A program made the translations under genes and the position numbers. The notes beneath the pieces are model-generated. The model made no database searches. It saw only the letters and a list, made by a program, of their open reading frames with translations, and was not told the DNA's origin. Shown here piece after piece: positions 1 to 25,700 of a stretch of DNA of 37,409 bases. The DNA comes from Catajapyx aquilonaris (lineage: Eukaryota). Numbering within the stretch: the first letter of the stretch is position 1; each line of letters opens with the position of its first letter. The stretch spans positions 1-37,409 of the forward strand of contig KZ538989.1 in the NCBI GenBank assembly GCA_000934665.2, written 5' to 3'.

Positions 1-570
1 CGTTTCCGGACACGGTTTCCTATGTCAAAAATACTTGTCTTTGTCCCCTCTATTACCCCTGCAAGTCTTTGCAGAGTTACAATAGACACCCTGTATATTA
101 CTTCCATGGAGCTGTGCCTACCAACACCAGTTTGCGCTGGAATATGTGCGTAATTGATATACGCCATTCCTTGTGAAGTTGCTCAAGCGAGTAATATACA
201 TGTCATGCTGCAAGAGACGGCAGCCTACGTTATGTCTCAAATCTTCTTACTGTTTTTATATCACAGAGGATAACGAATATTAATGGGTCAAATTACCACA
301 TGCCTATGACAGGCAGTTGTTACATAACAGTCAAGTGATCGGTCCAAATGAATGCAACAGGTTCATTATCAAGAAAATGCTGCAGTCTCTGTCACATATT
401 CGCAAACTGATGTCTGTGTATAACACATACACATTCTTACACAAGTCACTTGTAAATGATGATGAGATGAAATGTTTTGCGTACACAATACGCAATGAGA
501 GCCAGAAACCCAGAAAGCAAAGCATGCAAGCAAGCAGAGAGATATCTACGGTGCTACTTCTACCACTTAC

Positions 571-705
571 TCTTCGGTGACGGCAACGAGTATAAGGTTA
601 GAGCCGGTACCAGTGAGGGTGCCGGTGCCACCCAAGTTGGCAGAAATGGCGGCTCCCATCAGCAGCATGTTTCTATACGCTTTGGCTCGCTCCATGCAAG
701 CGTGC
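571..705 (-). CDS. Indy: SLC13 TM5 exon, variant B ([45 protein letters not shown]); duplicated, candidate mutually exclusive exon
   Basis: Pyrimidine-rich acceptor TCTGTTCCCACAG ending at 706, perfect GA|GTAAGT donor at 570, 135 nt, phase 2-2, no stop, clear paralogy to variant A. Confidence 0.85.
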
Positions 706-3700
706 CTGTGGGAACAGACATGAAGAAGGACGCGCCTTTCTCAGGTGGCCTATTGCTCCTAAAGCATGCGTATGACTACTTATGATCTACCGGTGCGTGG
801 TATGGGCAGTTGTCTATGTACACAGTGCTAAGGAACACGACCAGGTTCTGTTTCTGCTCCCTCATTACGACACCTTCACCACCTTCACCTTAGCACTACC
901 ACCACCGACAAAAGTGAAAAGTGCGACACACGTCTTGCAAGTGCTGTCATGTCATAGTGGCATGTATTAGTTTCATACTAGGTGGATGGCTGCGGGTCTG
1001 CCGATGTGTTATACGTGGGGTGAATATATGTAGTGAAGCACGCTTAAAATACAAGTGCAAGTTTTGCCCAAGGTTACCATGAGTATAGCTGCCTTATCTG
1101 TAGCAGACAGCTAGTCGCGTTACCGGTATTTTAAACATGACCAGGTTGTAAATAGTTGAAGAGTACAGTACATTTGCATACGGCGGTAGGCTACTGGGTA
1201 TAATTGCTACTGCACTATGCAAAAAATAAGCGACCTCAAGGACATCTCCTGCATACGTGCATAATTTAAATGTACCGGTACGGGAGATTTTATATCGTTC
1301 TTTTCAGTTTTGTTACAGTTTCATGCCCTAGCTTTTTATGTCACATAAATCAGGATTTGCGTGCAGTAATATCAATCTGTAAAGCTGGGTTTAACATAAT
1401 TCTGAACAAAACAAAATGGTCTAATTAAGAATAAGTGTACTTAACGAATCTTATTGCATAATGCACATACATAACTCCTGTGCGGCAACATCCTGACATA
1501 TATATTCTTTTGATTACAGTGATTAATCACATTAATTACAGGTTTTCCCAGCCAAGTTGGAGGCAAGAACACTTAGAACGCGGCCATTTATTTTATCACC
1601 GAGGAACATTGCCCACTGGGCACATATACGACGCAAATAGCTTTCTGTTGCGAATAAGGGCAACTAACTCACACCATCCTTGCACACTACAAGGGGTCTG
1701 TAAATACCAGTAACCATTTGGGGGTACTTTAAGGCAAAACCAGGTGACCAGAGATATTGTCAATTCATTCCACATTGACAGCGAGACACCAACATGGCAA
1801 TAAATCGACGCAATCTCAGTGAGGCAGGGCAGAAGAACCAAAGGCCTTTGAAAAGCAGACGTGAACAGCAGTGTCCAGCAAGTGGTATATGTCTGTTGAC
1901 CGGCGTAGCTGTCCAAAGCAACTTACTCCTCGATGAATCCGGCCAGGATGATGTTCGGCACCGTACCGGTGAGGATCCCCGTGCCTCCGATGTTAGCAGA
2001 GTAGCAGACGCCCAACAGGATCATGGTCCGCACCACGTGCCACGAAGGGTTGCTGCTAGTCAAAGAGGAGAGTGGAGAGGTTGTCGAAGGTGTGGAAGGA
2101 CAAGAAGAAGGCGACGAAGATGTGATTGTAGGTAAGGGGCTATGGGCTGCAGGGAGGGAGGATGGGGGGTCCTCCCATCTCCTGCCGATCACGGTGATGA
2201 CTCCCTTGGTGTGTCCTCCTAATATGCTGTTGCTGCTCCGCCTCCTACACAAGCACTGTCTGCGAGAAGCCTACCATCAGGTGGCTCCACACACAGCACA
2301 CCACATATCGGCATTTGTGCAACCATCACCCGCTCATATATATGTGCAGTTTGGCCCCAGAAAGCGAGAAAGAGAGACGACTCAATGCACCCCCAGCAGA
2401 TACGTTGCCAATGTACAGCAAATTGAGGGGCGTTCGACATTTGCGCGAATGACCACCATCAGGTCGTGATTATATGGTGGAATATACTGGATACATGACA
2501 ACTGCTTACGGTGATTATTCTCGACCGATATTACTGGTCTTTACAATGATTTAGCTTATTTTTCAAGGCTGTTAGGGACAGTTGAGAAGCACATTACATC
2601 TAGACTGTCCCTATATAATTACCTGATTCTTAAAAAAGAGTTACGCTTGAAAAATTGTCGATTCGGTCATCGTCTCGATTTGTACCATATCTCTTATAGA
2701 TATAATCATTTAGAACAAAAAAGAGATTAAGTAGGAGTAAAAAATGCCCTTGTAAGTAATCCCATGACGCAAAATCTCTTTCTGAATCCAGAGCAAAAAA
2801 AATAAGCCGCATTTCTTTGCATGCGTATGATTAATTGCCGCGAATGAAAATTCTAAACGTAATCCGAATTTATCATTACAAATCGTGCACAGTCATTGAA
2901 ACAAGTTTTTTTTTCCATAAATAAAAATATACGCCGCAAAGAAAGACGGTGTGTTAACATATAGTGGATTCCAACAGGATTCTGCAGTCGCTCACCTGTC
3001 ATGATTCGCGGGATCAGAGGATGAGTTGAGACCAGACGTAGGCGAGTTTCCCCCATCGCCATTGACGATGACCGTCGTGGCAATGCGACCGTCAACTGCA
3101 TCCTCCTTACCCTTGATGGCCTGCAAACTCACATGGTTGGCCACATGGTGTAAGTCGGTCAAGGGTACGTGACCCCGCGTCGCAGCCGCCGCCTCTTCTT
3201 CATCCGCCGCGTCCATCTGCAATGTCAAAAAAGCAACAATACAGTCTCCCTCTGTATGTACCAACAGAAAATGTTTCCGCACTTTGCTAAGCTCATCCAA
3301 TATGGCGTTGGCAATGGGCAGCATCATGGCCACCGCCGCAGTGTTAGAGATCCACATGGACAGAAACATGGTGGTCAACATGATGCCAATCAGCAAGCTG
3401 CAACGAGGGGGTTAAAGATCTGGGTTAATTATTATCCGCAGATGACGAAACAATAGGATTTCAAGTGTCCATCAGGAGGAGCAACGCAGTTTGTGGCCGT
3501 GCCCCCGCAAAACCTGCTATGTTCCGGCTAGTTTGATGCCAACCCATTTGTCTATGGCAAGGTCACTCCCTTATGGACTTGCATATGAAGCCAAAGACAG
3601 GTATGAGGAATGAATGACGGACGTCAGAAAGGGGCCTCCCAGGAGAGCGAATTAGATGGCGCCAGCACACTTTTTTATATATTATATGCAACTGACCACT

Positions 3701-6700
3701 CCTCCAGCCCCTATCATCCAGACCTATTCCAAGAAGTGGGGCTGGAGGCCAAGATGGAATGGAGGGCAAGGAGAGCATAATCTGCAAGTGCACTTGAAAG
3801 AGGAGGAGATTAATTACAATCTTGGGCTGGTTCCGACGGTTAGGAGGACCAAGAGGGCGATGCGTTTGTGCAAGTTGCAGTGTTCCACGGCAATGGCCAC
3901 GATTAGGCCACCGACGAACATCATGTTGGTGTCCTTCATGTACTGGATGCTCACGTCCTTGCTGCTCATCACGCCCAGAAGGGGGAAGAGGACCATGGGT
4001 AGTAGGGCAGTCACAGCCAGAGGAAGGGCCTCTGTCATCCAGAAGACGGCCATCAGGATCACCACATAGCCGCAGTTGGCCTCCTGAAACATGACATTCT
4101 TCGTCAGGAACATCGAATATGTCATCGAAATATTTTTAAAATCTGATACATATATTTCACAACGTATGTCTGTACGTTCCCGATGCAAATCAATACGAAG
4201 GCTTCGACATATGCCCCAGGGGGATCATTAGGGGTAGTTTTTAACGGGGAAGGTTTTTAGTGCATTGGATTTGACCTCCGAGGTCATCCTTGGCCGCAGG
4301 AGGCGATAAGGACTTCATGCACATGCAATATGCTGCTCCATGTGCTAATATTAGCCATAATTATTGCAAAGCTAACTACCAAATCAATGAGTTACTCCTA
4401 TGGAAAAGTATTTCATAACCCGAGCAACGCCGGGTATCCTGCTAGTTTCAGATACTCGAGATACCGGTTCTACGGTGTGTTTTGATTGGCATGCCAATGT
4501 ATCGTCAGAGAAGGACTAATAAATGCAGAGGCTCGCGTGCTCCGTCGTCACTCAGTCGCTAATTATTACGGCGAGGGATTACATTACGTAAAGAGTCATC
4601 CCCGTGGGTTACATATACTACATTGCTAATAAGTATCCATTGTCGACTTGTAGAAAGGTTCAGTTTTGTGCCTTGACCTCAGCAAGGAATATACGACAAA
4701 AAAATGGCACGAGGAAGTGCGATAGAATGATGAAGGACACAATAAGGAGAAATTCGGAAATTACTGAACAAGAAAAAAATACCGAGGAGCACAGGCAGCG
4801 GTATCACAAAAAGATACACTGTCGGTGCACTTATTATAGTGCACTCTAGGAATAGGATACCATAATTGACGGGACATGCCATGGCATGTCCTGCAATTAC
4901 GGTATCCTATTCCAAATTATCCATCATTATCCTGTGGTGGTCGCCCACAACCATAATTTATTTTGTCAAAAATATAAAATTGATTAGAAAGCATGCAAAG
5001 TGCACATCGGTGCAAGTGACCTTCACTTTTTATCTGGGAGATCTACGTGTACGGTATGCCTGTTTCCGCCGAAAACCATATCTGCCATCCAGGCAATTTG
5101 CCGTCACTCCCACACCCCAGATATGCAAAGTAGCCATAACTCACCCTCATTGCAACAAAACAAATGCATAAATGACTATATTAAGCATATATCGAAGTGC
5201 ATATTACGTCTGTGAAATTAACATCTAAACATCACCGTTTCTCAACATGTCTTCTAAAAACACATGTTGAGAAACGGTGATGTTTCACAGACGTATCTTC
5301 TAAAAACACATGTACTAGGAATAGACCATGCACCTGTGGAAATGTTGACAATTGACGCCATAATGGGGTGGGTATGTGATGCAATGAATTTGTCAAGCAC
5401 AACGCACCTGATGGCAACCCAAGAGGGATGGGAGCGTGTCCTTTCAACCCCCTTTCCTATTGAATGAAGCTGGGCTCTATGGGCACGCGATGTAGTATAT
5501 GCTAGGGCAAATAGGCGGAAACAGAGATGGTCAGAAGCTGGTCACCATTTCCGGCGACGGCAGGCACATGCCACATGAGTGAAGGGTTGAATTGCTAAGC
5601 TATGGGCACATAACTCGTCAGCATAACTGATAAAAAAAAAAATGCGGACGACATATCGTCGAAAAATTTTGAGATCACTAAAATATTGGTTGTCCGGAAC
5701 TTTTTACTCATTGTTGTACGAGAAATTATAGCACTAACAATCTTCATCCATGGCATGAATGTTGACCCTCATTATCGTTCAGGAGGGTATACCACACGTG
5801 CCATACGTGATGAACTGCATGTTGCAAGCCGTGGCAGAAGACAAACAAGCAATTAAAAAGCAACTGACAATAGTAACAATTACAATAACATTTACGACTA
5901 ACGTTAATAATGTACGTGTGACATTAATACATCGTTAATTACTGTCAATATAGGCCAACGACCACTTGCGTATTGCTAAAGGTATGGTCCACGTGCTCAT
6001 TTCGCATCGAGTAGCTGGTGCAGACAAAGGTGTTAGTGCGGAGAATATAATAGTCATTATACGATGGCCGATTGGTTTCTATACTCCGTGATGACATGAC
6101 GCATTTCATTTTTACCTTCAATAACTATACACAGAAATAGCTGCATATTTGAATATGAATATAACTCATTATTGGTAATGAGAACGTGTGTGCTTTGCGG
6201 CTTCTGCACGTTAATTATATTACGTATGACAAGAGTGAAAATATCGTTCTAGATTGTGACTTTCCAGTGCGAAATCAACCCTAAGTGGCAAATAAAATTC
6301 GATCAAATTTCAACTGTTACTTTCTTTTGTGAAGGGTATGCATCACACGTAGTAGAGCATATAGAGTGGGATGGGAGGTAAGATATGAAGCAGCACATGG
6401 ATCCTCCCCTGCTCTATTGCCCAAGATCCGGGAGGGGGTGGGGGGTGGGGCAGTCGTAGACCATTACTTCTGCGACAAAAAAATGAGATATATTAGCATG
6501 GAAAATAATATTCCCTTTCATCACGCCTCACAAACTTCGCTTTCATGAACTAAACTAGCAGAAAGTTGTTAAAAGCCAGAAATGTTGTTGTGCAAACTTG
6601 GAATTTGAGCGTCTTCTTCAGGAGCGTAATTTTTTAAAATTATTTACATAAGTGTACTGTATACAAATGAAAAATTTGAATATTAAAAATTCCATTTAGG

Positions 6701-8217
6701 CAGCATTTGGTTAGAAGAATGTCCTGTAAAATATGTTGTGGAGTTTCTCGGAAGAGGCATGTTCAAAATATTTCGGGCATGGCGTGTTGTACAAAATTCG
6801 AAGGTCTAAGATTGTGGGTAGACCGGAATTTGAAGCGTAGGGGTATTATTCACTGAACCTCCCATCTTCCTCCCTACCCCTCCCGCCAAAAAAAAAAACA
6901 CACATCTAAAACACTGCAATTACTCACATAGCTACACCTGTGCATAATCTTATCCATGTAGTGATAAAACAGGTGTGTAAACTCTTCCTAAGATTCAAAT
7001 GTGTATTCGCAAAAAAACAAAAAAAACAAATTGACGTATTTTCTTTATTCTGGCATAATTTTCTATCATTGAAAACGGACTTGTTATCTGTTTAACTTTC
7101 CAAGCGTCACACCGTCGCGACGGTGCGCGTCGCGTCGTGTTACATTATATTATACACCTAGATTTTTTCAAAAATTCAGTAAGGTTTAAGTTTCCGCTTG
7201 TTCTGTAGTCTCGTGCTGCGTATATAGCCCCCCCCCCCCTGTCGCTGCATACCGATACAGTTGACTTGCAGCCTGTATTGTTTGACCATTGCCCAGAGCT
7301 ACTGAACCGTTGGAGGTGTATAATGGTGGGCAATTACTAGAAACCGCTCACACCCTGGAAGCCAAGGCCCAAAAGAGCCTCGGGGTACGCCGAATGGGGT
7401 ACGCCGAATGGCACCCCTCCGTATAGGTCGAAAGGTTTTGGTCATAGCCCGCCATACTTCCTACGTGTCCCACACCTGCTGAAGTCAAGGTGCGGCCTCC
7501 ATATGCGATAGAGGTCCAGATATTTGGATCGGGGTATCAGTTAGCATCAGGTGGAGAAGAGCCTGAAGGCACACATGTCCCTGACCACGCTCCCACATAA
7601 CATACTTGATTATTAGCATAATATCAACAGGTGGCGGAGGTGTGCGGGACAATGAGTTATGTGAGAGACTCGTTTAGCGGGCTATTGAAGGGTAACATTG
7701 TAGAGGGATGATACGATGTGTCTTGGCCTTGGATATGTTAGAAGATGGTTCATGTGAGGAGTGGGTGGGGGAGTCCGCCAGACTCATTTGGGTGATTGGA
7801 GGCGCGCGTCATTGATCGTGGTGCCAGGAGTTGGTTCGATGGATGGATGGACGGACCTCTGTGGTCACGAGGAGGTTATGAGGGGGGGCTTCTTATACCC
7901 CCTCCATCTCAATTAATTGCTTGAGTGTGCCCGCTGCGTCATTCATGGATTTGCCGTGGGACGAAGAGGTGGTTGATTGATCCCGGTACAAACCGGGTTG
8001 GATGCGTCATTGGCCCCACGAAAGTGGAGGAACAATGAAAAATGTGAAATTTGATCCCTTTCGCAAAACCCTGCCTGACATTGTGAAATTCAAGTAGTAT
8101 TAAATTGAAATATCATACCTTGGTTCCTATGGCAAGAGGCAGCGGCAGGAAGGCCAAAGGTACCAAATAGATCACCAGCCATTTCCAGTAGAGTAGAAGA
8201 GGGTGCTTGACGGCCAT
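571..8217 (-). CDS. Indy: SLC13/Indy-like sodium-dependent carboxylate/sulfate cotransporter, 5' part (gene continues left of the window); exons 8217-8119, 4083-3818, 3397-3283, 3216-2996, then 2259-1927 or 705-571
   Basis: Spliced translation gives SLC13 hallmarks: '[24 protein letters not shown]', '[12 protein letters not shown]', '[19 protein letters not shown]' (SNT motif) and '[16 protein letters not shown]'. All junctions are GT-AG with compatible phases (0,2,0,2,2). Family assignment is firm; exact orthology to Indy is not established. Confidence 0.9.
1927..2259 (-). CDS. Indy: SLC13 TM5 exon, variant A (…[34 protein letters not shown])
   Basis: TTCTCGCAG acceptor (exact 5' end less certain), GA|GTAAGT donor, phase 2-2; conserved GGxGxLTGTxPN motif. 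Confidence 0.85.
2996..3216 (-). CDS. Indy: SLC13 exon encoding the variable cytoplasmic loop (MDAADEEE...ANHD)
   Basis: TTTTTTGACATTGCAG acceptor, AG|GTGAGC donor (phase 2), open frame. Confidence 0.8.
3283..3397 (-). CDS. Indy: SLC13 exon with SNT (HPin) motif
   Basis: TTGCAG acceptor at 3398-3403; [44 protein letters not shown] donor. Confidence 0.9.
3818..4083 (-). CDS. Indy: SLC13 exon ([21 protein letters not shown]...VGTSPR)
   Basis: TTTCAG acceptor at 4084-4089, GTAATT donor ending at 3817; conserved SLC13 N-terminal transmembrane sequence. Confidence 0.93.
4418..4445 (+). mobile_element. Helitron 3' terminus (hairpin + CTAG)
   Basis: ACCCGAGCAACGCCGGGT hairpin followed by ATCCTG-CTAG|T; 5' end not identified. 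Confidence 0.7.
4849..4913. repeat. 65-bp near-perfect palindrome centred on CCATGG
   Basis: GGAATAGGATACCATAATTGACGGGACATGCCA / TGGCATGTCCTGCAATTACGGTATCCTATTCC. Confidence 0.9.
5205..5313. repeat. Inverted repeat (24-bp perfect arms 5227-5250 and 5262-5285) plus 18-bp direct repeat (5250-5267 and 5296-5313)
   Basis: AAACATCACCGTTTCTCAACATGT / ACATGTTGAGAAACGGTGATGTTT; TCTTCTAAAAACACATGT occurs twice. Confidence 0.9.
8119..8217 (-). CDS. Indy: SLC13 first coding exon ([33 protein letters not shown])
   Basis: 33-codon hydrophobic exon, too short for the ORF track, matching the SLC13 N-terminal 'P-L-x-x-L-P-L' helix. It ends AAG|GTATGA in phase 0 and joins EANCGY. A TTTCAG acceptor lies 12 nt upstream of the ATG, so an upstream exon probably exists. 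Confidence 0.85.
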
Positions 8218-9437
8218 GGAAAAATATCCCTGAAACACCCCAATTGAATGGGCTCAAATGGGCGCTTTACTTGCTGTCCCTTTTCCTTTTCGAAGCCCTT
8301 CCCTCCCCCCTCTCCCTACTTTTTTTTTTTGTTGTTATTGTCCAACAGAGAAAGGGAAAGTTGATCAGTTTGCACGGCACTCTCCCCTTCCAATCAGTCG
8401 TGCATGTTGCACTGTCACCACCACTTTAAAAAAACGACACAACACTAGTCAAATGTCACTAGGCGCCTAGTTCGAATCTGGCGCCGCACAATCCAGTGAG
8501 GTGTGCTACGGTGTTGTGGTATGTCCGCTGTGGTTGTACGCAGTTAGTTGGTCAGCTGCCCAGCCAGATGTGTGCCGGACGAGCCCTCCGAGCCTGGCTT
8601 TCTAAGTGGTTGGCCCGAGAGAGGCACTGCTCATTGGCGTAGTGCTTCTGGCATCCTTGCTCGCGCCCTCCTTCCTCCCCGATTCCCCCAACTCCCCTAG
8701 GGTGGAGGAGGGGGGATCTCCCCACCGCAGTCGCTCAATGCAAATCTATCCCTTTTTCCAGTGAATTCCTTTCGATGGGGGGGTTTTTCTTCGACTCTGC
8801 TCCTTGGCCGTAACCTTTGACCCTAACCTGAATTCAAATTCAGCGGCGGTTGCGGATTTTCATATGTAATCTGACTTCGTAGACGCCAGGGCAATTGTAT
8901 GCCGGTACAGTGATAAGAGTGGTTGTTGTAAGCGGCGGGGGTGAAGAAAAGTGGGGTAGGGTTGAGGGGTCATGATAAGGACGCATGGCGGTGTTTCAAA
9001 GTAAATGTGCGTCGGGGGGGCACATGAGTGGAAAATAAGCACACTGGAGATCTTTGTTAATGACGATGGTGTAACGGAAGCATGACGTGTGCCGGCAGCA
9101 CAAGAATAAGGCCCAATTGGTTTTGCCCAATTGGTCGTCGACGTAGCCCTACGTTGTTTTGATTCCCGGAGGGCCTGTCCACAATAAGGATGTGGGGCAA
9201 TTGCCTATGACGTGGAGCCAGTCTTCGGTGACGCAACACCGTTACTAGCAACCACGTTAATTAGGCTTGCTAGCTGTGGCTAGATAGCAGCCCTCAAGGG
9301 CGGGCCCACCCCACCCAATCCCACCCTCTCGCCACCTCCTGTCTCTTTCTACAATGCCACTGATTGACCCGAAGATTGGAGATGTGCGCGATGGAGGGGG
9401 ACATGATCTAATACCTTCTGCTCACTTGTCAGTTATC

Positions 9438-9504
<67 letters not shown>

Positions 9505-9517
9505 TTATTATTATTAT
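9438..9517. repeat. (AAT)n microsatellite, about 21 units, followed by about 5 inverted (TAT) units
   Basis: Read directly from the sequence. Confidence 0.95.
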
Positions 9518-11314
9518 CGTCGGTTCCAAAGGGCAGTGGATTCAGCGAGACTGATGACTTTCTTTGGGTTCATATTTATGTACGATATTTTTTTATGTCT
9601 GGAGTATGTTGTGAAGTTGTGAAGCAATGGAGATATCGAAGCAACAGATTAAACTAGTGTGCCAACAACATTCAATCCGTGAACCACAAGAAACCGTATA
9701 TATCTCCCTGAAACCCAATGACAAACCGACAAGTCTAAGGATCAAATCAAGAGCGGCAAGGACTTCAGATAATTGGTCATGGTGATTAGCATAATTATAG
9801 GCCTGCGTTACAAAATTCATCTCGACACGTGATACTCAATGCGAGGCAACTATGCAGTGGAGAAACTATTCCGTTTTCCGAATGTGACACATGGAAGGTT
9901 CCGAAATATTATGCAGGCCCATGAACAACATGATTTTCATGGCTGTGAATAATGGGAAGTATTCCTCTGGTATTCACATATCTAGTAATGGTAAAATATT
10001 TAACATGGCTGATGCTGCGAGGCTGGCTGGTACTGGCATGTTAACTAAAAAAAATTGTTTTGCTACACATATTATTATCACATGTCCACCTACTTCAAAT
10101 ACCACATTACTTGATATCGGGCAGAGAGATTGTGCTATATTTCGCCGTCTGCTTACGTCCCAAGAGGGAAAGGTGTACCACGCGTTTTCCTTCTTGTTAG
10201 CACCGCCTACTGACCAAGAAATGGACCACCTGAGAACGCCCAAGGGTGTTCTCAACTTTACGGCTCAGGGAGTACGTAACGGATGCTTAAAAACAAACAA
10301 TAACAATCTTATATGGATGAGCTCAGCCAAGCATAATACGTAACAATCGAATGGACATTAATCGGTGGTCATTACCAAGGGCTGCTGGTGTGCGTATAAG
10401 GGACATCGGTGTACCCAATCACGTACCCGACCCGGGTTTAGATTGAGAGGAAGGGCAGCACGTGGCCAGCAAGTGTTGTGAGCACGCATGGGTAAAGGCC
10501 AGAAGATGTCCTGGACCAGAGTGCCCATCGGCCCTCACGTAATCAACGTCGATCAAATCTCGTCGACGCAGAAAGCAGCGGATGTTGAGGGGAGTACTGC
10601 CCTCTCGGTCCATCCTTCCACTCGCCCATCACATGCACACAACTAGTCCTAACTGGAGGAACAGGGGATGTTGCCATACCCGGAGGCAACTAAAAGTGGT
10701 CGTAAAAGCGCGTCTTAACTTGGGTGCTTTGTGGCTGTCGAAATGAAGCTTTTGCGTCGAATTGTTGGTGTGTTTCTACATCCGTTGCTTGCTGACTAGT
10801 TATACCACATCACGCAAGCAAGCAGGACCAGCTGTGGGGTTGGTTGGCTGTCATTTTGTTGCAGCACCGCTTCTGAAGGTTGCTCATCATTAGCATCCGA
10901 AAAGCGCCACGCCCGGGCAGAATACCTTCCTTTGCTCAGGACTGACGCAGCAGGACAGGCAACAGGAGGACAGAAACACGCAGTCCGATGATCCCACATA
11001 AATTATCGGGTAGAACATACATTGCTGGTATGCCAATAAGCGTTCCTGGAAACAAAACATGCGGAGAATGTTTTCCTGCAACTGCGCGACTACCTTTCGA
11101 ATTTTGATGGTGGGGGAATACCCAGGGATCACAATTGCTTATTAGTTGGGTAATTCCCTGCACGCTTAAAATTTGTGTCACAAAGTTTTGCTTCCTTGTT
11201 CCTGGCGCACGGTTCACTGAAGGTTAGAATTCCGATGTGGTGTTTAAACACATTCAATTGTGCAAGAGTTTACAAATATGCCTATCACGATCGCGATAAG
11301 AGGTTTGACAGGTC

Positions 11315-11331
11315 NNNNNNNNNNNNNNNNN
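11315..11331. other. Assembly gap (17 N) adjoining a poly-C run
   Basis: N characters in the sequence. Confidence 1.
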
Positions 11332-11527
11332 CCCCCCCCCCCCCCCGGAGCTCTGTTGGCGATTAAGTTAGTCTAGGCGCTGAGATAAGTCAGTTTACAA
11401 TGTGTAAAGCTGGTAAAGTCTATATGATTCATATAATGTTCCTCATTAGTCATGAATGTTGTTGAAATTGTTGATTATTATACAGTCGACACAAAAACAC
11501 TATTATCTGCTTATTATTTTCTCCGCC

Positions 11528-13467: not shown

Positions 13468-13782
13468 TCATGATGGGGACGAGCGCACGAGGAGCTTGTC
13501 TTCAGGCATGGTCCATGGAGCCTGCTTAGGAACTGAAGCAGAAGATGAGTTGCTGGTTGGTGGGTGAGAGTGTGAAGGTGTAGCTGCCATGAATCGTGCC
13601 ACTGCTGCTTGTGAGATCTGTGAAGTGTGCCTGAGGTCCAGGAGCTCCAGTTTGATGCACCTGCGCAGGTGGTCCAGGCTGGAATCTGTCAGCATTCGGC
13701 AGCCGGACATATCCAGTTGACGCAGGTTTTGCACAGAAGCAGCTGGAGATGTGCACAGTTGTGCTATCCCAGCGTCGGTCAC
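13468..13782 (-). CDS. Kdm2: Kdm2 terminal exon, C-terminal LRRs
   Basis: CTAATTCTCAG acceptor; [10 protein letters not shown]...[17 protein letters not shown] stop at 13468-13470. Confidence 0.92.
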   Translation of the reverse strand: MTDAGIAQLCTSPAASVQNLRQLDMSGCRMLTDSSLDHLRRCIKLELLDLRHTSQISQAAVARFMAATPSHSHPPTSNSSSASVPKQAPWTMPEDKLLVRSSPS

Positions 13783-16700
13783 CTGAGAATTAGACAAACC
13801 ATGTTATGTTAGTTCAATACAGCAACATCTGACAATGGTCTTGCAAGAGGAACAGACCTTGTAGCAGGAGCTGAGATCAAGATGTGTGATGAATCGGAGG
13901 TGCTGAGTGACGTATCTCAGGGCAACGTCTGAGATGTCAGTTGCAGCAAGTCGAAGCCGTTGCAGAGAGCGAAGGCGGGAATGAGCACCAACCAGCCCTG
14001 GCCTGGAGTCTGGAGGTGGGCTGAGAAGAGCTCGAAGGTTGGCATCACCTAGACCGGAGACGCAGCTCAAGTCAAGAGCCACCAATGGAGGCACGCAGCA
14101 GGAACGCATTGCCGAAGCTGCAACCCAACTGCACCCACGCAGGCTGAGGGAACGCGTCTGGGGCAGTCGTGCCAGAAGCCAGGCCAACTGACGCTGACCC
14201 AACCCGGACACCCACTCCAGAGCCAAGCTCTGTGGCTGCCGACGAGCCACCCCGGCCAACTGAGCAGCACTCACAGTTCGAAGTCCGGACAAAGACACAC
14301 GACGCCACAGGCTAGGGTCAGCACAGGCGGTGTTCCACGCTCGACACACGCGCATACACACGCTTAGTTCCGAAGCCGTCAACCATGAGAACACGCGCAC
14401 CAGCACTCGCTTGTCCAGCATTATCCCACTCTGACCATCTGGGTCATCCGCCTTCACATCGTCCGCAGGTGCTTCCCTGCCCCTGCCGCTTCGGGACTGC
14501 ACACGTCTCCTGCTCTTGCTTCGTCTTTTCCGATGGTCCTCTTCGTCCTCGTCATCATCCTCATCGTCTTCATCGTCATCGTCGTCATCCTCGTAATCCT
14601 CATCGTCATCGTCACTTCCCTTCGAGTTTTTCGAGTTCTTCGTCAGGGGGACCGCAGCGGCGGGTCTCACCACCTGCGTCGGCTTCCTCAGGGCCTTGGT
14701 GGACCCTGCCGTCAGCTGCATGACAAGCTGCGACCTGACCCCCACTTTGTTGTTGCCCTCGGGCTTCTTTGGCACCATCGTCGGAATTTGTGGGGCACCG
14801 ACGGCGCACGTGGCACCCGTGGCACCACTGCTAGTCACCATCTGTCCCCTCTCTTCTAGTTTACGCACTTGAACCACGCAATGGTTCAGTTGCTGTTGCT
14901 GCTGGGGTTCCATGGTTCGCGGGGGTGAGGCCTCCGCGTCACTCTTGCTACCCGAGTGATACTGCTGCGAGTGGTGATGCCGATGGTGGTGCGGGTGATG
15001 ATTGTGGTGATGGTGACGGTGATGCGATACCGGCGCCTGCTCCGAGTTCCGGCGGTTGGCTCCCAAAAGCCCTTCCGGCATATCCCCCACACTCTTCCGC
15101 CGTTTCTTCCTACCGTCGTCCTCCAACTCCGACGGGTCGTGGGTCAGCTGTAATGACCAGGTCACCTTCGTTATTTGGACTTCCCCCTCTGATAGTCAAA
15201 GAAATGGACATTCATGGATACCAAGCGCTGCTCTACCACAATCTACATAATTTCGTAATTTCATATTCAATTTAATTCCAACTATTCGAATATTCACTTA
15301 CGGTACAATGATCAATTGTTTTGCATTTACATCGCACCATATGTAATTACTGGCGTAAAAACGCATTTGCTACGTCTTAAGGGCGGTTTATGGGCCTTGG
15401 CGAATTACTGGAAAATAGTTAACGTTCTTAGTTGTAGCGACATTAGCTAAATCAACCATAACTCACGCTTGGGAAATCAGCCGTTCGCCAGCAAATAAAA
15501 CACGGAAATATGTCGCACATACAACTATACGTTTAAGTAGTACAGCAGTACAATATTGCTTACACCACACCAGTTGCGCCCAAGCCCAAAACCAGATGGG
15601 AATAATATTCCGTCGGTTGTACAGTCGGTACATTTGCATATTGACGCCAGTAAAGAAAAGAAACACACACCACCCTCCTCCGTTTTCCCTTTCCCTCTTC
15701 CCATCACGTGTTTTATTATGTGTAGGAAGTGCTGCGTATCTAGGAAAACGAGTTTCGATCATGCAGGCCTGGAAGGGTTCAACCCCGTCGAAACATTTGG
15801 CCAAGCACGAAGCCGTTGTGCAGTACTGGGCAGTCCGAAGATTGCCTAAGATGACCCACATTATCGCAACTTCATCCCAGGTGTATCATACGGGACATGT
15901 AATTAAGACCAACGCGAGGGCCACCATCGATAAAAATCTTCAAGGTTACCATTATGACGCACGTGGATGTTGGGTGGACACTATATGGGACAGGGTCAAA
16001 AGTCTGATGACATGGTCCGTTTTGGAGAAGTTACATTTTTTTTTCTACTCACATGTCTTCAACTTTCATATGAGAGAGCCTCATGCCAATGAATTCTGCG
16101 TATTACGATATTAGTAGGTCATGGCAGTAACACTACATTGCAATTTTTTGTATGACATGTGGAATAAAATAATTATGGCCTGGGATTGAGTGATCTAACT
16201 CGAACAGTCCATTTGTTATGACCTCTGGTATAGGGAAGTAGGAAATGTATACACACTGAGGCTATAAACTGAATGAAAGCACCTTGGAGTTCGCGCGGCT
16301 GTACTTACCACGATTAGTAATAAATTAGTAATTACCACTTTCGGCGTAATTCTAGATTACGTCGCTCAGCATTCATGCGGACCATTTACAATTTCCGAAT
16401 AACTAAGGAGGTAACTATGCGGAAAAATATGAGTTTAATTTCCATTCCACCTACTGGAGCAATCTATATTATTAATGCCCTACTGTGATGGCGATTCCTC
16501 CCGCCGTGTACGGCCTACAGCACTGGAAGTGATGTCAAAATTTAGCCCGCGTGTCCTATATTTGCAATAATGTTTTTGTGTGTTTGTTTTTTTGGAAATT
16601 GTGTCCAGGGAATTTATAAAACGCAAAACACGCCGATCGCCTAAAAAACCAACCACCACGGAGTTCCCATAAACGCCGTGTCGACCGCGGGCGCTACCTC

Positions 16701-19700
16701 CACACCGTCTTACTTCGGTACTTCGCCGTCGGATGTCGCTGCCTGGTCCGCGTATCTCTCTCCCTCTCCACTTTCGCAATTTTGTCTAATTTGCCTAATC
16801 TTGGCAAGTTGGTGTCTAGTTTTTCCTTATTTTTTATAAGAAATTCGCTACATGCATAAGTAGCCACAGGGTGTGGAGTAAATCATACCTTTATTCATCT
16901 CTTCAGGGTTGATGAATTGTGGCATACCAGATATGCGACAGAACCCACCTCAAGAAAAGGCAGAAACCCATCGTGTAACTCCCTCCTTTGTGGTCAAATT
17001 GGAATCCCCAAGAGTTGAAAAGCAGTTTATCTCACTGCTTACGTTTAGATTACAGTGTGCATTTACAAGGTGTCTATTCAGTACCAAACCCCCAATGTGG
17101 ACTCTTGTGACTTTGGGTAGAATGGAGTTATGTTCGGTGCAGAGTAATGCAATGTTTTCTGTGGTAACTTCAGTACCTTTGTTAGCTCAAGTTACTTGAG
17201 GGGAATATTAGCATCTTGTTGTGTTCCTGGAAGTATGGTCGGCCGCCACAAAACACTAGCACAGTGTAACTTTTCCTACTGATCCTACTTCAGTTAAGCC
17301 TTAATGAAAGTCCTTCTAATGCATGTCAAAAATGGCAGACGGATGAGTTGAAGAAGATTCAAGAGTATGAATACTGGATACCAAAAAGACACAGGTGATT
17401 GGCAGTGTTCTCAGAACAGTCTGAATTATTCGAACCAATACGAGGAAGTACGGGCACTCAAGGTGAACACCCAAAATACGCAAGTCGATTCTCAGAATGC
17501 AAGTAAATACTTTAAAATATCTCAATTTTGTACCACTCGTCCTGTCAAACATTACAGGCTGCATTCTCTACATCCTGGATATGACAGTTCCATTGTGTGC
17601 ATTACATAATCAGTAACCAAGAAGTGCACAGTCACTGACCACACCTTTTCAAAGAAATGCCCTGACCTTGCTGCTATTGCATGAGCATATCCTGAGATAA
17701 TGACCTTTGTCAACAACACAGGTTTCGATTTTCTGTATGTTTTGTCAATAAGAATTATCACTGTGCTACTCTACAAAATAATGAAATCATTCCCAATTCT
17801 TAATGGGAAACCCAGATGTGGAACTTGCAAATTTCTTCGCTGCCTTTTGAGAAGAATGGGAAGAAAGGAGAAGCAGGCACTTTGAAGGTCGCATTTAAAA
17901 GTTAGCTTTGGTAAGTTAATATTCTTTTTGGGGTAAGTATTTCCCCTTTCTTGTTATCAAAATACCATTGACCTCCCATATATTTCACCTTTCATTTTAT
18001 ATCAGACAGCTAAGCAAAGCTCAACTCCTCTGCGAAGAATATGCCTGGCATGTGTATCACATTAAGCTCATAGTATTATACGCACTCCCCACCCCAGCAA
18101 ACAATGCAGGTTTCCTATGATTACCAGATGAAGTCCTCTACTTGTGCTTACCCTATGCTGAGGCCTGAGGGTATTAGTAACGTCACACAAGTATGTACAC
18201 CGGTTACAGACAGTTTAGATGAGTTGGGGCAGTTACAAGCAGTTTAAAAAAATGAAATGTGCACAACACAAATCCAGGACAGAGCAAAAAGCAAATGCAT
18301 GTATGCAACAACCGAAATGAAAGGGATAAAGGGAAGAGAGAGAAAAGTATCTTGTGGAACCCAGACAACCATGCCGTCAATAGGACTTGAACCTTTGCTG
18401 ACACCGCATGAGATGATGGTCCTTTTGCTTGAACCTATGTCCAAAGACTAGCAATCTCATCTGTGTTTATGTATTCACTAAAATATCCTACTGGATCACA
18501 CTAGAAAAACCCTCCAGGTCCTGCACAACGTCCTCTTTGGTTACTAGTGGCTACTTCCTGTAGTAGTAATTCCTCAGTTACAGGCAGTCATGCCATGTAT
18601 GGACAATTCTTGATTATGCTGTATCCCACAACGTGGATGATGATGATGCCCAATTCACACTTCACAAACTTTTGTGCAGCTTTGAAATTTCACTGATACG
18701 TATGTCATGCATCTTCATTTTAGAGCTGACTAGACCAATCATGTCTGTATCCTGCCAACCTGTCTCAATAGATGGAACTGGAGTCTCTACCCAACAACAG
18801 CCCATTTAACAGCGTTCATAGTCCACTACAAAATAATCACCATTGTCTTGTTATTTGTCACAAAATGTCAGATGTTGCAAATCATCCTGCACTTGAATTA
18901 GGAACAACTGTGCAAGGAAGGAGCAGTCCTAGGAAGTATCATAAAACTATTCCAGGACTTACAGGCAGTCTACTACTAAGTAGGCAGAGCAGTGAAATAC
19001 TGTCATACTGTATAGTGCGCTGCATGTGCAAGCAAGGTGGTGGTATGGTCACAAAGTTTGCACAATCAATCAGTACAATTTAAACTGGATACAATCAAGT
19101 TACAACTGGTAAATTGCCAAACAGCATTCATAAAAATCAACTACATGATTTCACAACTGTGTAATTCAAGGGTGATAATAGAGAGCATTAGTGCAAAATG
19201 CCTTCAAGACACAAGCTAAAGTACCATACAGTCATGAAGCTTTACATTTCTGTAATTCAATGCATCTATATGGTCATGTTCTCACAAACATACACATCTA
19301 AATCTGCACACTGTACAAGAACAGGGATGAAAAGTAATTATGGGAAATTAAAACAAAATGGTTACACTACAACTAAGTAAAGCTCTTTATTTCCAATAGA
19401 AAACATAATCCAAATAAGTAATCAGCAGCTTTATCCAAATAAGTAAACAGCCACCTCATACACCACAGCCTGATCCAAATAAATTCACAGCACCCAAAGC
19501 AAAGCAATCCCAATCATATGGTAGAATGAAGGATGCCATTGATTCCAACAAATTTAAGATAAAAAGTACAGCAAAAATTAGGTGTAGCACAATCAAGGGG
19601 TGGGTGTAAGCTGTGCAGTAACATGTGCAAACAATTCCTCCAGAGATTATCCAAATACACTTTCACAGTACATCCAATTACAGCCTCAAAAATCCAGTTA

Positions 19701-22700
19701 AAGCATACACTAACAACCATCTAAGCCATTCCAGAAGCATGTCCCCAATCAAGTGTGGCAGTGGGGAAAGGTAATGCAAGAATATCCATTAATTCACGGC
19801 TTACCTTGTTGCTGTGGGAATGTCGTGGCTTATGCTGATTCAGCTTTGGCTTCTCTTCTTTCCCGCTTGCATCCTCTCTGGCCTCTTCTTTAGGCTTTTT
19901 CACTCCAACCATAGCAGCACCAAGAGGAATGCTTCCAACTCCCACCCTAATACCATTACCTTCATCCTCTGACTTCCTCTTCAACCCAGCACCAGTTCCT
20001 CCCATCATCATCATCTTCTCACCATCATCCACCTGGAAAATTGACCAATATTCTACAGGGTGTTCCGATGATCACATCTTTCTCTTCATCCATAGTACAC
20101 ATGGCATTCATATACTCATTGGCACCAGGTAAAATCATGGCCAAATGGTACTAACGACAGTATTCAAACTATCTGGGCCAAAGTTAGAACAAATCACATG
20201 TTAAATAGTAAAATATCTAGTCAGGGACCTTACTCTTATCAAGGTCATTCCATGCCAAGTGAGGCACATGGATTGTTTAACCCTCAGGGTTTTAAAAATT
20301 GCAACTGCTTATCTCTCTGCCAAAAAATTAGAAATTAATATTCTCAAATGTTAAACCCTTTTTGTAGCTTTTTTTGAAAACATTGTAACACCATGACCCC
20401 CAAAATTGTCAAACTGTTGTAGAATCTCCTGATGAGTTAATCAGCCAAGCATGCAAGCAAGCCAATAACATCCTGACAAGTGTATAAAGTCAAGTCACTT
20501 CCACAATGGAGTATAACTGACCTCAGGTGGCTCCACCTTTAAAGCTGCACCCAACACAGAGTTATTCTTGTAATGCTTCTGCTGTGCCATCCCTAGCAGA
20601 CCATCCATCTCCAGGGCTCCTGGAGTCATCAGGAATCCTGCATTGCTGCCTGGAGTGGGTGGCATAAGTGGCGCCGGTTGTTGGATTGCTTGAGGAGTCC
20701 CATTATTGTTAGTTGCTTCTCCTGCAGCTGGTGCCCTGCCCTGCCTGGCCTTGAAGTGTCTTGGCTTGTGTTCTGAATTTTTGCCCGCTTTGCAACACTT
20801 GGGGCACTCCCAGGAGTTGGGCAGATCCTCGTTGACCACACCTTGCTGCACAGGAGCGCCTTCAGGAGGTACCCCAAACTTTTGTTGTGCACATGAGGCA
20901 TGGATGATTTCGTAGCACACGCTACATTCCATCAGCGATGAAGGAGTTGCTCTTGGTGCCTTTTGGACTGGAAGCACCAACTGCCTTCCCCATCCATCAA
21001 GTCCGCAAGTGCTGCATGTAGCCGTAACAGGCAGCATAGGCTGAAGACATTGCCGGTTCATGCATGTCTGTTTCATGCGACCAGGCCCTCCAAACTTGAC
21101 CATGTCATGGCAGAAGGTGCATGTGCCACAATCGTCTCGAATGCAGGCCTCACACTTCTTGCATCTAGTGCGCCGGCGCCTGGGTGGGCCACCCTGAGAA
21201 TGTCCTGACCCTGGAGGTCGTGGACCAGGTGGACGACCAACGGAACCCTTCTTAACATGCTTGTGGTTAGGGGCTGAGCGTACAGCCAATTGCTGGTTGT
21301 TTGGTGTTGAATGGTGCTTTGTTGGTGGGTCAATGTGCCAGAAGTCCTGATCAGTTTCATGTGCCCACCGCAAAACAGGAAGCCCTGTAATGGCCTTTGC
21401 TGGTTCATCATGACGATGGTGTTCAACCAGGTCACGTACATCACGAACCAAGGCTACAGGGTCACGAATTAACTCGGGCACATTCTTCTTGGAAGTTGGC
21501 AGACCATGGAGATACATGACTATGGCTTTCAGGCCATGCAACTCCTGGGGACAGATGTGAATATGCTTTGGCAGCTCAGGATGGGGAGGTGGGGCAGGGG
21601 GAGGTTGGGGAGGCTGGGGAGGCTGGGGAGGCTGTGCAGGGTCTTCCTGTGATGGTGGCGGATTAGTCGTGGGTATGTCCAGATGGGAACGGCCCAGCAA
21701 ACAGTGGACATAGCGCTCCAGGACATACCACAGCATCTCTGTGAAGAACGGGTAGCGGAACTTCTGGGGAACCTAAAAATTGAAAACATTTGAATTTAAC
21801 GGTATGCTATAACTGCATATCTAAAGATAACGCTTGACCTTAATTTTTCATAACATAGGAAAGTTAATGTACTCGTGAATAATGTACAATCCCTGGCCTA
21901 AAAATATATGAATTTCAATGCTTGGGGATATGAATCAGGTAAGATAATACACGTATGACACACAAGATCAGATCCTGTGACAAGCAAAAGGGCTAGTGTG
22001 ACACATGGTAGAATTATTCCACATAACTAACTCATGATTCACAAAATCTGCTGAAAAAAGCAGATTTCTTTGAAAAATAAACTTGGGAAGAAAGGTCTTG
22101 ATTCACTTCTATATACAAGTTAATGTCACCACTGCATCTCCTATTATGTAAATACATTTCGCAATATTTTGATCCCACAGCTAGTATCTGACTTACATAA
22201 GTGGAACGTTCCACAACATTACACGTAAGTAAAATTTTACAAAACTCGGTAACTGTTTAACAAAATTTTTACTGTATATTGTACAGTACTGTACTTATAC
22301 GTTGATACTGGAATATGTTGTATTCAGCTGAGACTGTTGTGATAAGGAAGGTATTCCTCGCAAGACCCAAGTGGGTTGCAAATATCTATCACATGTGTAA
22401 ACTGACAGTGAGTGGAGGAAAGTCTAGGCTGGCAGGTCCGAGATGCCATGTTCAGAAATCTAATACACTCTCACAATTGGAGGTATTTTATGTCACCAGT
22501 TGGTTCTCAAGTTTTGTGCCCATTAGAATTTTAGAGTCGGAATCTACATGTTTCAGAGCTAGGAAAGTCAGGGACTTAAGATGAATTCTGAAAGAGGCCT
22601 TTCTTGCAATGAACAATGGTTAACATTTTTCATGCAAAGACTATTTTATTGGGCAGTATTTTCTGACTTCACATGCACACCATGCCGGCATCAACTTCCC

Positions 22701-25700
22701 CCTACTCGAACAATTGTAACGTACTGTATGGGTGACCCCTCACATTGGAGGAAAATTGTTAAGGCAAAATATTTTGCTATTATGAAGTGGGTAATTTTAG
22801 GTCCTTGCAAGTTAACATTAACTAAGATTTCCTGTAATAAGCACTCCTCCAAGTTTTATAAACCAGTGTACTTTTACTATGCTTACTTCCAAATTACCAG
22901 TCCTTCAAAAGAGTACCAAAACTCACATGAGTCACATCCTCCACGTGGGCAATCTTGAGCTGCTTCTCAATCCCAAAACTGTGCAGGAAATTTCCTCCAA
23001 AGACAAGGGAGTCTTTTGGGGTGTACACAGCATGAATCCAACCAGTCGGGATGAAGAAGGTGTTCCCTTCGGTCAGAGTCACTCGCCCACACTTCTCCAC
23101 TGAGTCTCCAAAGAACACGTCACCCTGCTTCCCAGAGAGTACCCAGTTTTCATACAGCTGCAGGTTGCGCTCGGTAGGTGGAATAAGCCAGAAAACCTTG
23201 GACCCTTTGAGTATGTGGTACCACACTGAGGTTCCCCCAAAGTCAATGTGGAAGTCGGTGTAACATCCTTTCACCGACATGAGGCAATACTTCTGAACCT
23301 TGGGGTACATCATGTCTTCCAGAAGATTGGTGGATTCAGTCTGTTGCTCCTTGAGATGTCGGGGCCACACTCTCTCCACCCAGTCGATGTGGCGGACTAT
23401 GGCAGGAGCAATCACATGATGCTCAAGCCGAGTGTGGCTGAACTCAAGGGATATCACGTTTAGTAACCGTTCCTTGTGTGGGTCCTCATAGTACTTCTGC
23501 CACTCCCGCATTGTCATCTCCATGTTCTTCTGGGTGTTCACATCCATAACATCCAACTGGCGACGGGACCCTGTCAGCCACAATTAACAATTAGCCATAC
23601 ATTTAAAATGAACCCGACAATTACAGCATGTGGACCAATCTGTGATGAATGTATGTCCAACAAGAATGGTACTAACCCACACACATGCGTACGTCATTGA
23701 CAGAGAACTTGGCACTGGGCACCCTGAGGCCCAGTCCTGCTCTATCCTGGAACAGCACAGGAGTGGAGAACCCACACTGCTGCAAGAAGGCCAGGTTGAA
23801 TTCTGCTCCATGCATCTCCTTTACAAAGCACTGAGGGAATCGATCTGTCTCTATCTTCTCCTCCAAGTTGAAGCTCTGCTGACCCTCAATCTCTTCATCA
23901 CCAATTGTCCAGTCATCAGTGTAGCGCTTCCGTTCCTTCCTGTCCCTCTGCAAATATTTAAAGATCAACGTTAGGGTTTTTCTGCATTGAGTCAGCGTGT
24001 ATGAGTCAGGTCAGAATTGCCATTGCTCTACTGGACAAGTACACATAAATGTTGTCACAGAGATGGTTCATAATAATGTGGAATAATAATGACAGTCAAA
24101 ATTAAACACTATCAATTATCGAGAACAAACTGCACTGCTCCAAAGAAGGTGCCAAGAACAAAGAAGAAAGTTTGAGGAAGTGCTGTAATGGGCCTCACTG
24201 TCTCTACTCTGGCAAGACGCTACTTTCTGAAGAACAGTCAATGGTTTCACATCACCCCTCCATGGCGCCATTCCAATGCGGCCGGGTCTAAGAAAGCACA
24301 TGACAAGTGGTCGAAAATTGCCACTTAAAATTCGTGTGGTATTGAAGCAAAGGGAAGGGTCCCAAGTTTGATCCCAAACCCATACTTTCCCTCCTTTCAT
24401 CGTATGTGATGCTGGGTATTCTCTGTCTCCCTGTCAGGTGGAATCTCCACTAGATTGACTACCTGGGGGAACTCACAAAATGGCTGTTTCAGACAATGCC
24501 CTTGCATGGTGTATACCTCTCCTCCCAATCACCCCCACCTGCAGATCTGTGTGCGTTGCTCAAAGGGCCATTGTACAGTGGGGGTTGTATTATGAGTGTA
24601 CTGGCTAAAGAGCTTTAATGGCTAGGAAAGTCAAATAAACTCGTTGTAGTACAGTGGGGTCAGAATCGAAAAGAGACAGACAAAATGCATTTTTTGACCT
24701 TGTTTCGGTCTCTTGACATATGTGATGTACTGTAGATCGTTACATGGCCAGCACTTTGTAATCCGAATTATTATTTTTTGGTCTGCGATCATCCCTAACC
24801 CATGCAGAGGTCATGAAAGTACACTTAATTTGCTTGGGCACAATGCTTGAGATATGTGTGCCCTGTGGCTTAACATTCTCCCAGTCATAACAATGAGCAG
24901 GCTGGTGGTACATTGGTTTTGTGACTTTCTATTTTTAGATCAACACCAGTGCTTCTCAATGAAATGTATGGATTGTTATTTTTTCTAACAACAGAAGGCA
25001 GACGTACGTAGACACTGGCTTGACCTCTACAACAGTGGGCTACCCTAAATTTTGTCAAAATGCTTTCAAAACAATGTTTTTATTTTGGTAAAAACAGATG
25101 GCAGCATTCGGCAGGCTCTGGATTTCTGGCTTGCCATACCGTTTTATATTTCTTGATTGCATTTGTAAATTAGGGCTCTAGAGTCTAGACATCACTCAGA
25201 AAATTTTGGCTGAGTTTTGATGATTAATTTGAAATATGAGTTAATATTCATAATTCATACCCCATTATCAGCCGGCGGCTCTTTAGGGGTTTTGACTGGA
25301 ACTATTTACTTTCATTTTTACTTTGCTTTTTGGGATAGGATAGGGACGGAAGGAAGCGGCTGTGGTGTATTATTTAGGAAGCAATCCTGGAATTCTCCTG
25401 GGGGGACCGTGGGAAACCACAGAAAACCATAGTTAGGATTGCCGGCCCCGGGGCTCGAACCCAGGACCTCCCGATTAGCAGTCGAACACCTTATCCACTT
25501 CACCAAACTGCTTCAGTGAAATGAGTTAATATTGACAACCACCTGTTAACACAACATCTATAATATTAAAATCCTTGCGGGAGTTGGTCGAGCCCTCTGA
25601 TTGGTCCGCCGCATATTGTTACCGCCACCTCCCCATTGGCCCTCGTTCTAAACATGCGCAATGGGGTGTAAACAACTCCTCTGTTGGGTTGCCGGGGAAA

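Follow-up and report, generated by a model that had tools for sequence, protein, structure and literature searches.

A tandemly duplicated TM5-loop exon in an SLC13/Indy transporter gene of Catajapyx aquilonaris: a candidate alternative-exon pair

An SLC13/Indy gene with two copies of one exon

We analysed a 37,409-nucleotide (nt) stretch of the genome of Catajapyx aquilonaris (contig KZ538989.1), which we call the window and to which all coordinates refer. Positions 1-8217 hold, on the minus strand, the 5' half of a gene for an SLC13/Indy-type transporter, and within it lie two paralogous exons, A and B, for the fifth transmembrane segment (TM5) and its loop, a part of the protein that forms the Na1 and substrate site. 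The exons of the gene, mapped by tblastn with five arthropod SLC13 homologues and by direct reading, are the following (a slash marks a splice boundary, here and below).

8119..8217, minus strand: exon 1, coding part; ATG at 8217-8215, 33 codons, donor AAG/gtatga; tblastn match to SLC13 N-termini, RNA joint 8118/8119 to 4082/4083
3818..4083, minus strand: exon 2; 266 nt, phase 0 to 2; the transporter core begins here; match to Pfam PF00939, RNA contig joints on both sides
3283..3397, minus strand: exon 3; 115 nt, tip of the first hairpin with the S-N-T motif; tblastn match, PF00939 positions 122-157, RNA joints 3397-3818 and 3216-3283
2996..3216, minus strand: exon 4; 221 nt, phase 2 end, variable cytoplasmic loop; fully covered by a spliced RNA contig
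1927..2259, minus strand: exon A, long form; 333 nt, phase 2-2; TM5a-loop-TM5b core preceded by 68 residues rich in Ser, Pro and Thr; RNA joint 2996 to 2259
1927..2055, minus strand: exon A, short form; 129 nt, phase 2-2, inner acceptor ...ctttgactag/C; RNA joint 2996 to 2055, frame worked out by hand
706..1926, minus strand: intron between A and B; 1221 nt, with an unspliced RNA contig at 992-1258 (depth 5)
571..705, minus strand: exon B; 135 nt, phase 2-2, paralogue of the exon A core, from its open frame, tblastn match and splice context
1..570, minus strand: first part of the intron that follows B, with the next exon outside the window, past its first base

The 3' half of the gene, where the second part of the inverted repeat (a second hairpin with S-N-T, and TM10) would be expected, lies beyond the first base of the window, and the continuation of its mRNA is seen in a 1983-nt RNA contig described below. 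To judge from domain and homologue matches, the gene is a member of the SLC13/DASS family, and the assignment to SLC13/Indy made in the original prediction is borne out: exon 2 alone scores 63.4 bits against PF00939 (Na_sulph_symp; curated cut-off 27) and, among the 120 matches listed, is 71-80% identical to single-gene arthropod and fish SLC13 proteins and 53-61% identical to two multi-copy models, the closest match in a collection of 5.8 billion proteins being a mayfly protein (80%). Both PF00939 and PF03600 are present in all 120 of the homologues listed. The S-N-T motif of exon 3 aligns by tblastn with the same motif of the homologues; its role at the tip of the first hairpin in SLC13/DASS transporters is treated in PMC5413979. 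For exon 4, neither a Pfam match nor a family match to the encoded loop was found, and tblastn with the five arthropod proteins found no SLC13 homology in the intron between A and B or in positions 1..570.

Each of the two TM5 exons is open in a single frame, starting at 2258 for A and at 704 for B, with stops in the other two frames of each. In A the acceptor reads ...cttctcgcag/ACAGTG and the donor CATCGAGGA/gtaagt, and in B the acceptor reads ...ctgttcccacag/GCACGC and the donor CACCGAAGA/gtaagt; both have AG acceptors with pyrimidine tracts, and their donors are identical, GA/gtaagt, at the same codon. Exon 4 ends in phase 2 (...GACAG/gtgagc), so that either A or B continues the reading frame, and since the lengths of A (129 or 333 nt) and of B (135 nt) are all multiples of three, the frame is preserved when one is swapped for the other.

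Over their aligned cores, A and B are identical at 19 of 42 residues and at 71 of 126 bases (56%). Both match the same protein segment when the five arthropod SLC13 proteins are compared by tblastn with the 37-kb window (best E values 5.6e-08 for A and 1.7e-07 for B), and both match positions 118-150 of the Pfam CitMHS profile. Exon B as a query on its own finds SLC13 proteins, 22 of them with E <= 0.001, in an exhaustive search of 1.84 billion representatives; a separate search against 5.8 billion proteins gave 157 candidates, none with E <= 10. Frames, splice contexts and alignment thus agree with the earlier description of paralogous, stop-free minus-strand exons of phase 2-2 that share a GA/GTAAGT donor codon. 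It had also been remarked that B is missing from the list of open reading frames (ORFs); this is so because the open frame around B, at 57 codons, falls under the 70-residue minimum of that list. We conclude from these comparisons, in which the homology greatly exceeds chance, that A and B are tandem duplicates of a single exon encoding TM5a, the loop and TM5b.

Exon A is used in two forms and its transcripts splice past exon B

RNA evidence comes from the one public sequencing run found (X1) of 32 million letters, whose kind and tissue are not on record and which is kept as contigs that drop rare variants. Within window positions 1-8400, this run behaves as RNA, because GT..AG joints are present at each mapped intron (4082-8118, 3397-3818 and 3216-3283).

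Exon 4 is joined to exon A at two acceptors. The joint from 2996 to 2259 has a depth of 3 and lies on a contig over 2028-2262, and the joint from 2996 to the inner acceptor at 2055, also with GT..AG ends, has a depth of 3.2. The short form that results from the inner acceptor is in frame, does without the 68-residue Ser/Pro/Thr-rich stretch, and is about the size of B. A claim that choosing B over A would exchange a long Ser/Pro/Thr-rich loop for a short one is therefore to be dropped, as long and short forms are both made within A, from the acceptors at 2259 and 2055.

The region holds a 22-nt direct repeat, 77% identical between its copies at 708-729 and 2090-2111, through which the pyrimidine tract in front of B resembles sequence about 35 nt upstream of the inner acceptor of A. 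The repeat hints that the long form of A may be an exonised former intron, which, if so, would explain its Ser/Pro/Thr-rich translation.

The fate of the transcript after A is given by the 1983-nt contig (depth 36), which covers 2057-1927 and leaves the donor of A at 1927 for sequence outside the window: the sequence after A has no match in the window with up to 3 mismatches. Translated by hand, the reading after ...IEE is DYFGMDTDLS, which agrees with how the following exon begins in homologues (ELYGSAPGLNF in Daphnia, SLYPEQTDMNF in Artemia). The A-bearing mRNA therefore splices past B, and because B lies within an intron that is removed from A-bearing transcripts, it is neither a constitutive exon nor part of a separate paralogue. 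No joint from 1927 to 705 was reported in run X1, in which transcripts carrying A alone were seen and none carrying B alone; the absence of that joint had been named beforehand as a check on the exon pair. No X1 contig lies over 577-705, and an unspliced contig of 238 nt and low depth lies at 339-576; this coverage gap is counted neither for nor against B.

Exon B bears the marks of a preserved coding exon

To assess the state of exon B, we compared A and B with 25 other hairpin segments over 38 columns. Changes unique to A and changes unique to B are balanced against each of the 25 segments, and the mean identity is 17.2 of 38 for both. Among the 14 columns conserved in at least 80% of the 25 segments, B keeps 12 and A keeps 10. 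Between A and B, the synonymous distance (dS) is 1.2-1.45, which is near saturation, and the non-synonymous distance (dN) is 0.32-0.50. The acceptor tract and donor of B are as good as those of exons in use.

We also simulated neutral drift from an A-like ancestor, with 20,000 runs per rate, counting as survivors those runs in which the frame stayed open, the AG and GT dinucleotides were intact, and no fewer than 10 of 11 motif residues were kept. Survivors made up 1.9% of runs when 0.2 substitutions per site were allowed and 0.02% when 0.4 were; at 0.6, none of the 20,000 runs survived. Half of the silent distance between A and B is 0.6-0.7. Taken together, the tests within the gene and across the family (relative rates, conserved columns, dN below dS, and the drift simulation) say that B has been, as A appears to have been, under purifying selection.

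The exons encode the TM5 loop at the Na1 and substrate site

The place of the two exons in the transporter was read from solved structures of VcINDY (4f35, 5ul7), NaCT (7jsk), NaDC3 (8uvc), NaDC1 (8w6c) and Drosophila INDY (8zkw), with VcINDY numbering taken from the full-length chain 9n5n. Gap-free alignments place A and B on VcINDY 179-208, human NaCT 208-235, NaDC3 234-262 and Drosophila INDY 225-255, which form the discontinuous (broken) helix TM5. Both exons keep the motif ...S-A-N-[IL]-G-G-T-G-x-L-T-G-T-x-x-N, so that the pattern of the broken-helix loop, G-G-x-x-x-L-x-G-[ST]-x-x-N, is present twice in the gene, once in each exon. The alignment to VcINDY and NaCT upholds the proposal that A and B encode the TM5 loop of the Na1/substrate site, and in the structure-based alignment VcINDY G199/S200 are equivalent to NaCT G226/T227, the numbering that had been given, and VcINDY P201-P202 to NaCT G228-P229.

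The residues G-T-V-P-N in A and G-T-G-S-N in B are VcINDY positions 199-203. The two exons agree at 199, 200 and 203 and differ at 201 and 202 (V-P in A, G-S in B), so that the predicted contrast between TGTVPN and TGTGSN is indeed found, at the two residues that follow the Na1 glycine and its Thr. In VcINDY, according to PMC5413979, the G199 carbonyl is a ligand of Na+ at site Na1, S200 and P201 border the substrate, and S200T together with P201G lets a humanised variant hydrogen-bond the third carboxylate of citrate. Solved proteins carry P-P (VcINDY), G-P (NaCT), A-P (NaDC1 and NaDC3) and A-T (Drosophila INDY) at positions 201-202; in exon A these are V-P, with a Val bulkier than the residue in any of those proteins, and in exon B they are G-S. 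The original prediction had pointed out that B lacks the conserved Pro, but this is not a defect; the Pro is likewise absent from insect homologues, including Drosophila INDY.

From the VcINDY work and from the pattern at positions 201 and 202 in the solved homologues, one may guess that the swap would tune substrate choice or Na+ coupling through these two positions. Drosophila INDY has Ala, not Gly, at 201, so any such rule is not simple.

The TM5 exon in other arthropods

The same segment varies as a unit in other pancrustacean genes. In Daphnia magna, the proteins XP_045030623 (P0112, 608 residues) and KAK4016193 (P0106, 602 residues) share 580 of 608 aligned positions, and all of their differences lie across the TM5 exon. 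The first version is also found on 14 spliced Logan contigs; the second is repeated in A0A0P6DMV8 (P0107) and is present in D. sinensis as well (P0109). Both copies stand in tandem in a UniParc model (P0121), the version with Pro first. In the ostracod Cyprideis torosa, a model (P0147) that came up in the exhaustive search with B has three copies of the exon in a row, each ending at the same motif position as A and B. Predicted isoforms X4 of Artemia franciscana (P0007) and X4 of Schistocerca serialis cubense (P0013) involve the same exon of about 45 codons in the same phase, which marks it as a spliced unit; unlike the cases above, these isoforms skip the TM5 exon in frame and do not replace it, and no duplicate copy is visible in these proteins. 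Such isoforms would lack part of the Na1 site. On these comparisons of gene and protein records, we regard the TM5 exon as one that has been duplicated and alternatively spliced repeatedly among the SLC13 genes of pancrustaceans.

Several further candidates were examined and set aside. Orthology of A or B to the Daphnia or Cyprideis copies is not resolved by the identity matrix and tree. Isoforms X1 to X3 of Schistocerca differ by single residues only, and between the Logan proteins P0041 and P0144-P0146 the differences are confined to the N-terminus and to single residues, so neither set represents an exon swap. A metagenome scan for tandem hairpin exons gave 67 loci, and two same-strand copies were present in one locus only (L003, a eukaryote metagenome contig), which proved to hold two whole, nearly intronless tandem SLC13 genes and so is not an exon-level case. 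The two genes of that contig lie at 1831-3534 and 4526-6674, with parts of others on the opposite strand, and their TM5 loops differ at the same two positions as A and B (GTGAN in one, GTPPN in the other).

Weighing the explanations for exon B

On balance, and with restrained confidence, we favour the reading that A and B are an alternative-exon pair, with A as the default and B used conditionally. The reading runs as follows. In the gene for an SLC13/Indy Na+-coupled anion transporter, the TM5 exon, which supplies a backbone carbonyl to the Na1 site and lines the substrate pocket, has been duplicated in tandem. A is the copy used in the sampled RNA, its two acceptors giving a long and a short cytoplasmic loop; in B, 1.2 kb downstream, purifying selection has maintained another version of the segment, which would be chosen over A in some tissue, stage or condition. 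The choice of B would then yield a transporter that differs in 23 of 42 residues, including two after the Na1 glycine. The original prediction that one gene swaps half of its binding site by splicing is thus upheld in part: A is used and B is skipped by A-bearing mRNA, but no joint to B was reported in run X1.

Several observations weigh against this reading. In run X1, a single small run whose contigs drop rare variants, there is no joint into or out of B, including none from 2996 to 705. B has Ile in place of a near-invariant Tyr (AISAN) and V-A in place of the usual K-G after the motif; similar states occur elsewhere, with Ile in the fragment P0165 and M-A in P0167 and P0168. Nothing in the gene structure would by itself prevent joint inclusion: a transcript with both exons stays in frame, A and B are separated by an intron of 1221 nt, and all sites are GT-AG. 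An inverted repeat pairs the donor of B (556-571) with 1877-1892, and competing RNA pairing was considered as an enforcer of exclusivity; it was ruled out, as the best duplex between the B donor and the A-B intron, at -21.8 kcal/mol, is not above chance, being equalled by 198 of 300 shuffles and by 18 of 40 other intronic windows. Among the mechanisms examined (frame shift, short intron, incompatible sites and RNA pairing), none that would enforce exclusivity was found. Finally, a tree of the hairpin over 38 columns, in which A and B both fall outside the insect clade (99/99), leaves 13 of 24 forks open, and the Daphnia and ostracod duplications are not demonstrably the same event; with the tree in this state, those cases support the alternative-exon reading by analogy only.

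If B were instead a silent relic, that is, a once functional alternative exon or a plain duplicate that is no longer spliced and died too recently to decay, the missing joint in run X1, the A-bearing contig that passes over B, and the replacement of the near-invariant Tyr and of K-G would all be natural, and an open frame of 57 codons is not rare by itself. We regard this explanation as rather unlikely, though it deserves serious consideration. Amino-acid rates are equal in A and B, B keeps 12 of the 14 conserved columns, and dN is well under dS. In the drift simulation, no more than 1.9% of runs retained the frame, the splice sites and the motif at once, even with as little as 0.2 substitutions per site; a loss of use would have to be very recent to fit. 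The acceptor and donor of B match those of used exons in quality.

The two remaining explanations differ in what they make of the tandem arrangement. B might be a separate neighbouring paralogue, or an artefact of assembly, such as one in which a haplotype was duplicated or collapsed. SLC13 genes often stand in tandem, as in the fused models of Darwinula (P0003) and Rhipicephalus (P0149) and the two adjacent genes of L003, but the window shows no further SLC13 exon in the interval from A to B or on the downstream side of B, B is on the same strand and in the same phase as A, and the A-bearing transcript splices across the whole stretch that contains B; for alleles, the 56% of bases shared by A and B are far too few. 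We consider this explanation very improbable. That A and B are both constitutive, or commonly included together to give a protein with two TM5 segments, we hold to be more improbable still. The frame would be kept, both lengths being multiples of three, and gene models of this form exist (P0121 in Daphnia, P0147 in Cyprideis); these tandem models, however, derive from gene prediction or an unnamed UniParc record and are not shown transcripts. The depth-36 contig of 1983 nt goes from 1927 straight to sequence outside the window, with no joint from 1927 to 705 reported, and a second TM5 would break the inverted-repeat topology of DASS transporters as generally known from their structures and as set out in PMC5413979.

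Other features of the window

At the edge of the window, X1 contigs are stacked about 114 deep over positions 5-68, where they end loosely at either side, show an A>G variant at 64 and lack SLC13 homology; this is probably a short repeated or separately expressed element. The neighbour of the SLC13 gene, at 13468-24010 on the minus strand, is a KDM2/Jhd1-like histone demethylase gene. The ORF of its JmjC exon (22894-23583) reaches 86% identity with insect proteins named jmjC domain-containing histone demethylation protein 1, and a Cys-rich ORF (20495-21772) and a long acidic, Leu-rich ORF (13804-15195) look like its CXXC/PHD and F-box/LRR parts, domains that are included in the Pfam lists of the matches. 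Together with the 80% mayfly match of exon 2 and the position of both hairpin copies outside the insect clade, this match points to a pancrustacean host that has no near relative among the proteins of the collection.

Between these genes, a trinucleotide microsatellite at about 9450-9520 gives long poly-Ile and poly-Asn runs in two frames, and a run of N (an assembly gap) lies at about 11300, where the ORF 11154-11366 translates with seven X. The stretches 26000-28100 and 30000-32000 are rich in G+C (0.52 and 0.59, against about 0.44 elsewhere) and have many long overlapping open frames on both strands; they are possibly Pro/Gly/Ser-rich exons of another gene, or low-complexity DNA.

Comparison with known alternative exons and transporter variants

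Alternative use of tandemly duplicated exons is a well-known type of event, and the pair described here is probably a new instance of it at the binding-site segment of a much-studied transporter family. SLC13/Indy transporters set the cytosolic supply of citrate and dicarboxylates and are studied for their part in lifespan, metabolic disease and epilepsy, and the residues that decide between citrate and succinate, as well as the mode of Na+ coupling, are still debated. A pair of exons with which nature itself exchanges precisely the TM5 loop, while leaving the remaining protein unchanged, would be a ready-made experiment on both questions. On the practical side, crustacean SLC13 gene models leave out the second copy or else run the copies together.

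A search of full texts, which covered general catalogues in their main text, where SLC13 does not occur, found no paper on mutually exclusive splicing or tandem exon duplication in SLC13, Indy or citrate transporters, nor on the Daphnia case. The earlier statement that such an arrangement is undescribed for Indy-family genes stands to the extent that no describing paper was found, but an exon swap of this kind is already present in public protein records of Daphnia magna.

A broader proposal, which we put forward as doubtful, is that pancrustacean SLC13/Indy genes have repeatedly duplicated the TM5-loop exon (two copies here, two in Daphnia, three in the ostracod) and that the splice choice acts as a switch on the residue pair that follows the Na1 glycine, V-P or G-S in Catajapyx and S-P or G-T in Daphnia, so that one gene would give transporters differing in substrate preference, for di- or tricarboxylates, or in Na+ coupling. 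If this were true, other lineages would reach the same end by separate paralogues, such as NaDC and NaCT in vertebrates or the tandem genes of the metagenome contig L003.

As in mutually exclusive tandem exons of the known kind, A and B are adjacent homologous exons on the same strand, alike in size and phase, each of which would replace a homologous segment of the protein; in contrast to established cases, the exclusivity of the pair and the use of its second member are here what we infer. The closest parallel is Daphnia magna. There, Pro precedes the last motif residue in one version (GSSPQ) but not in the other (GSGTN), as in GTVPN of A and GTGSN of B, and in the tandem model P0121 the version with Pro stands ahead of the other, as A precedes B here. 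Orthology between these copies and A and B is not demonstrable, with 15-17 of 38 residues identical across species against 20 of 38 within each pair. Whereas only A is seen in RNA in Catajapyx, both versions in Daphnia magna are on record as full-length proteins, which makes a direct comparison of the two transporters possible.

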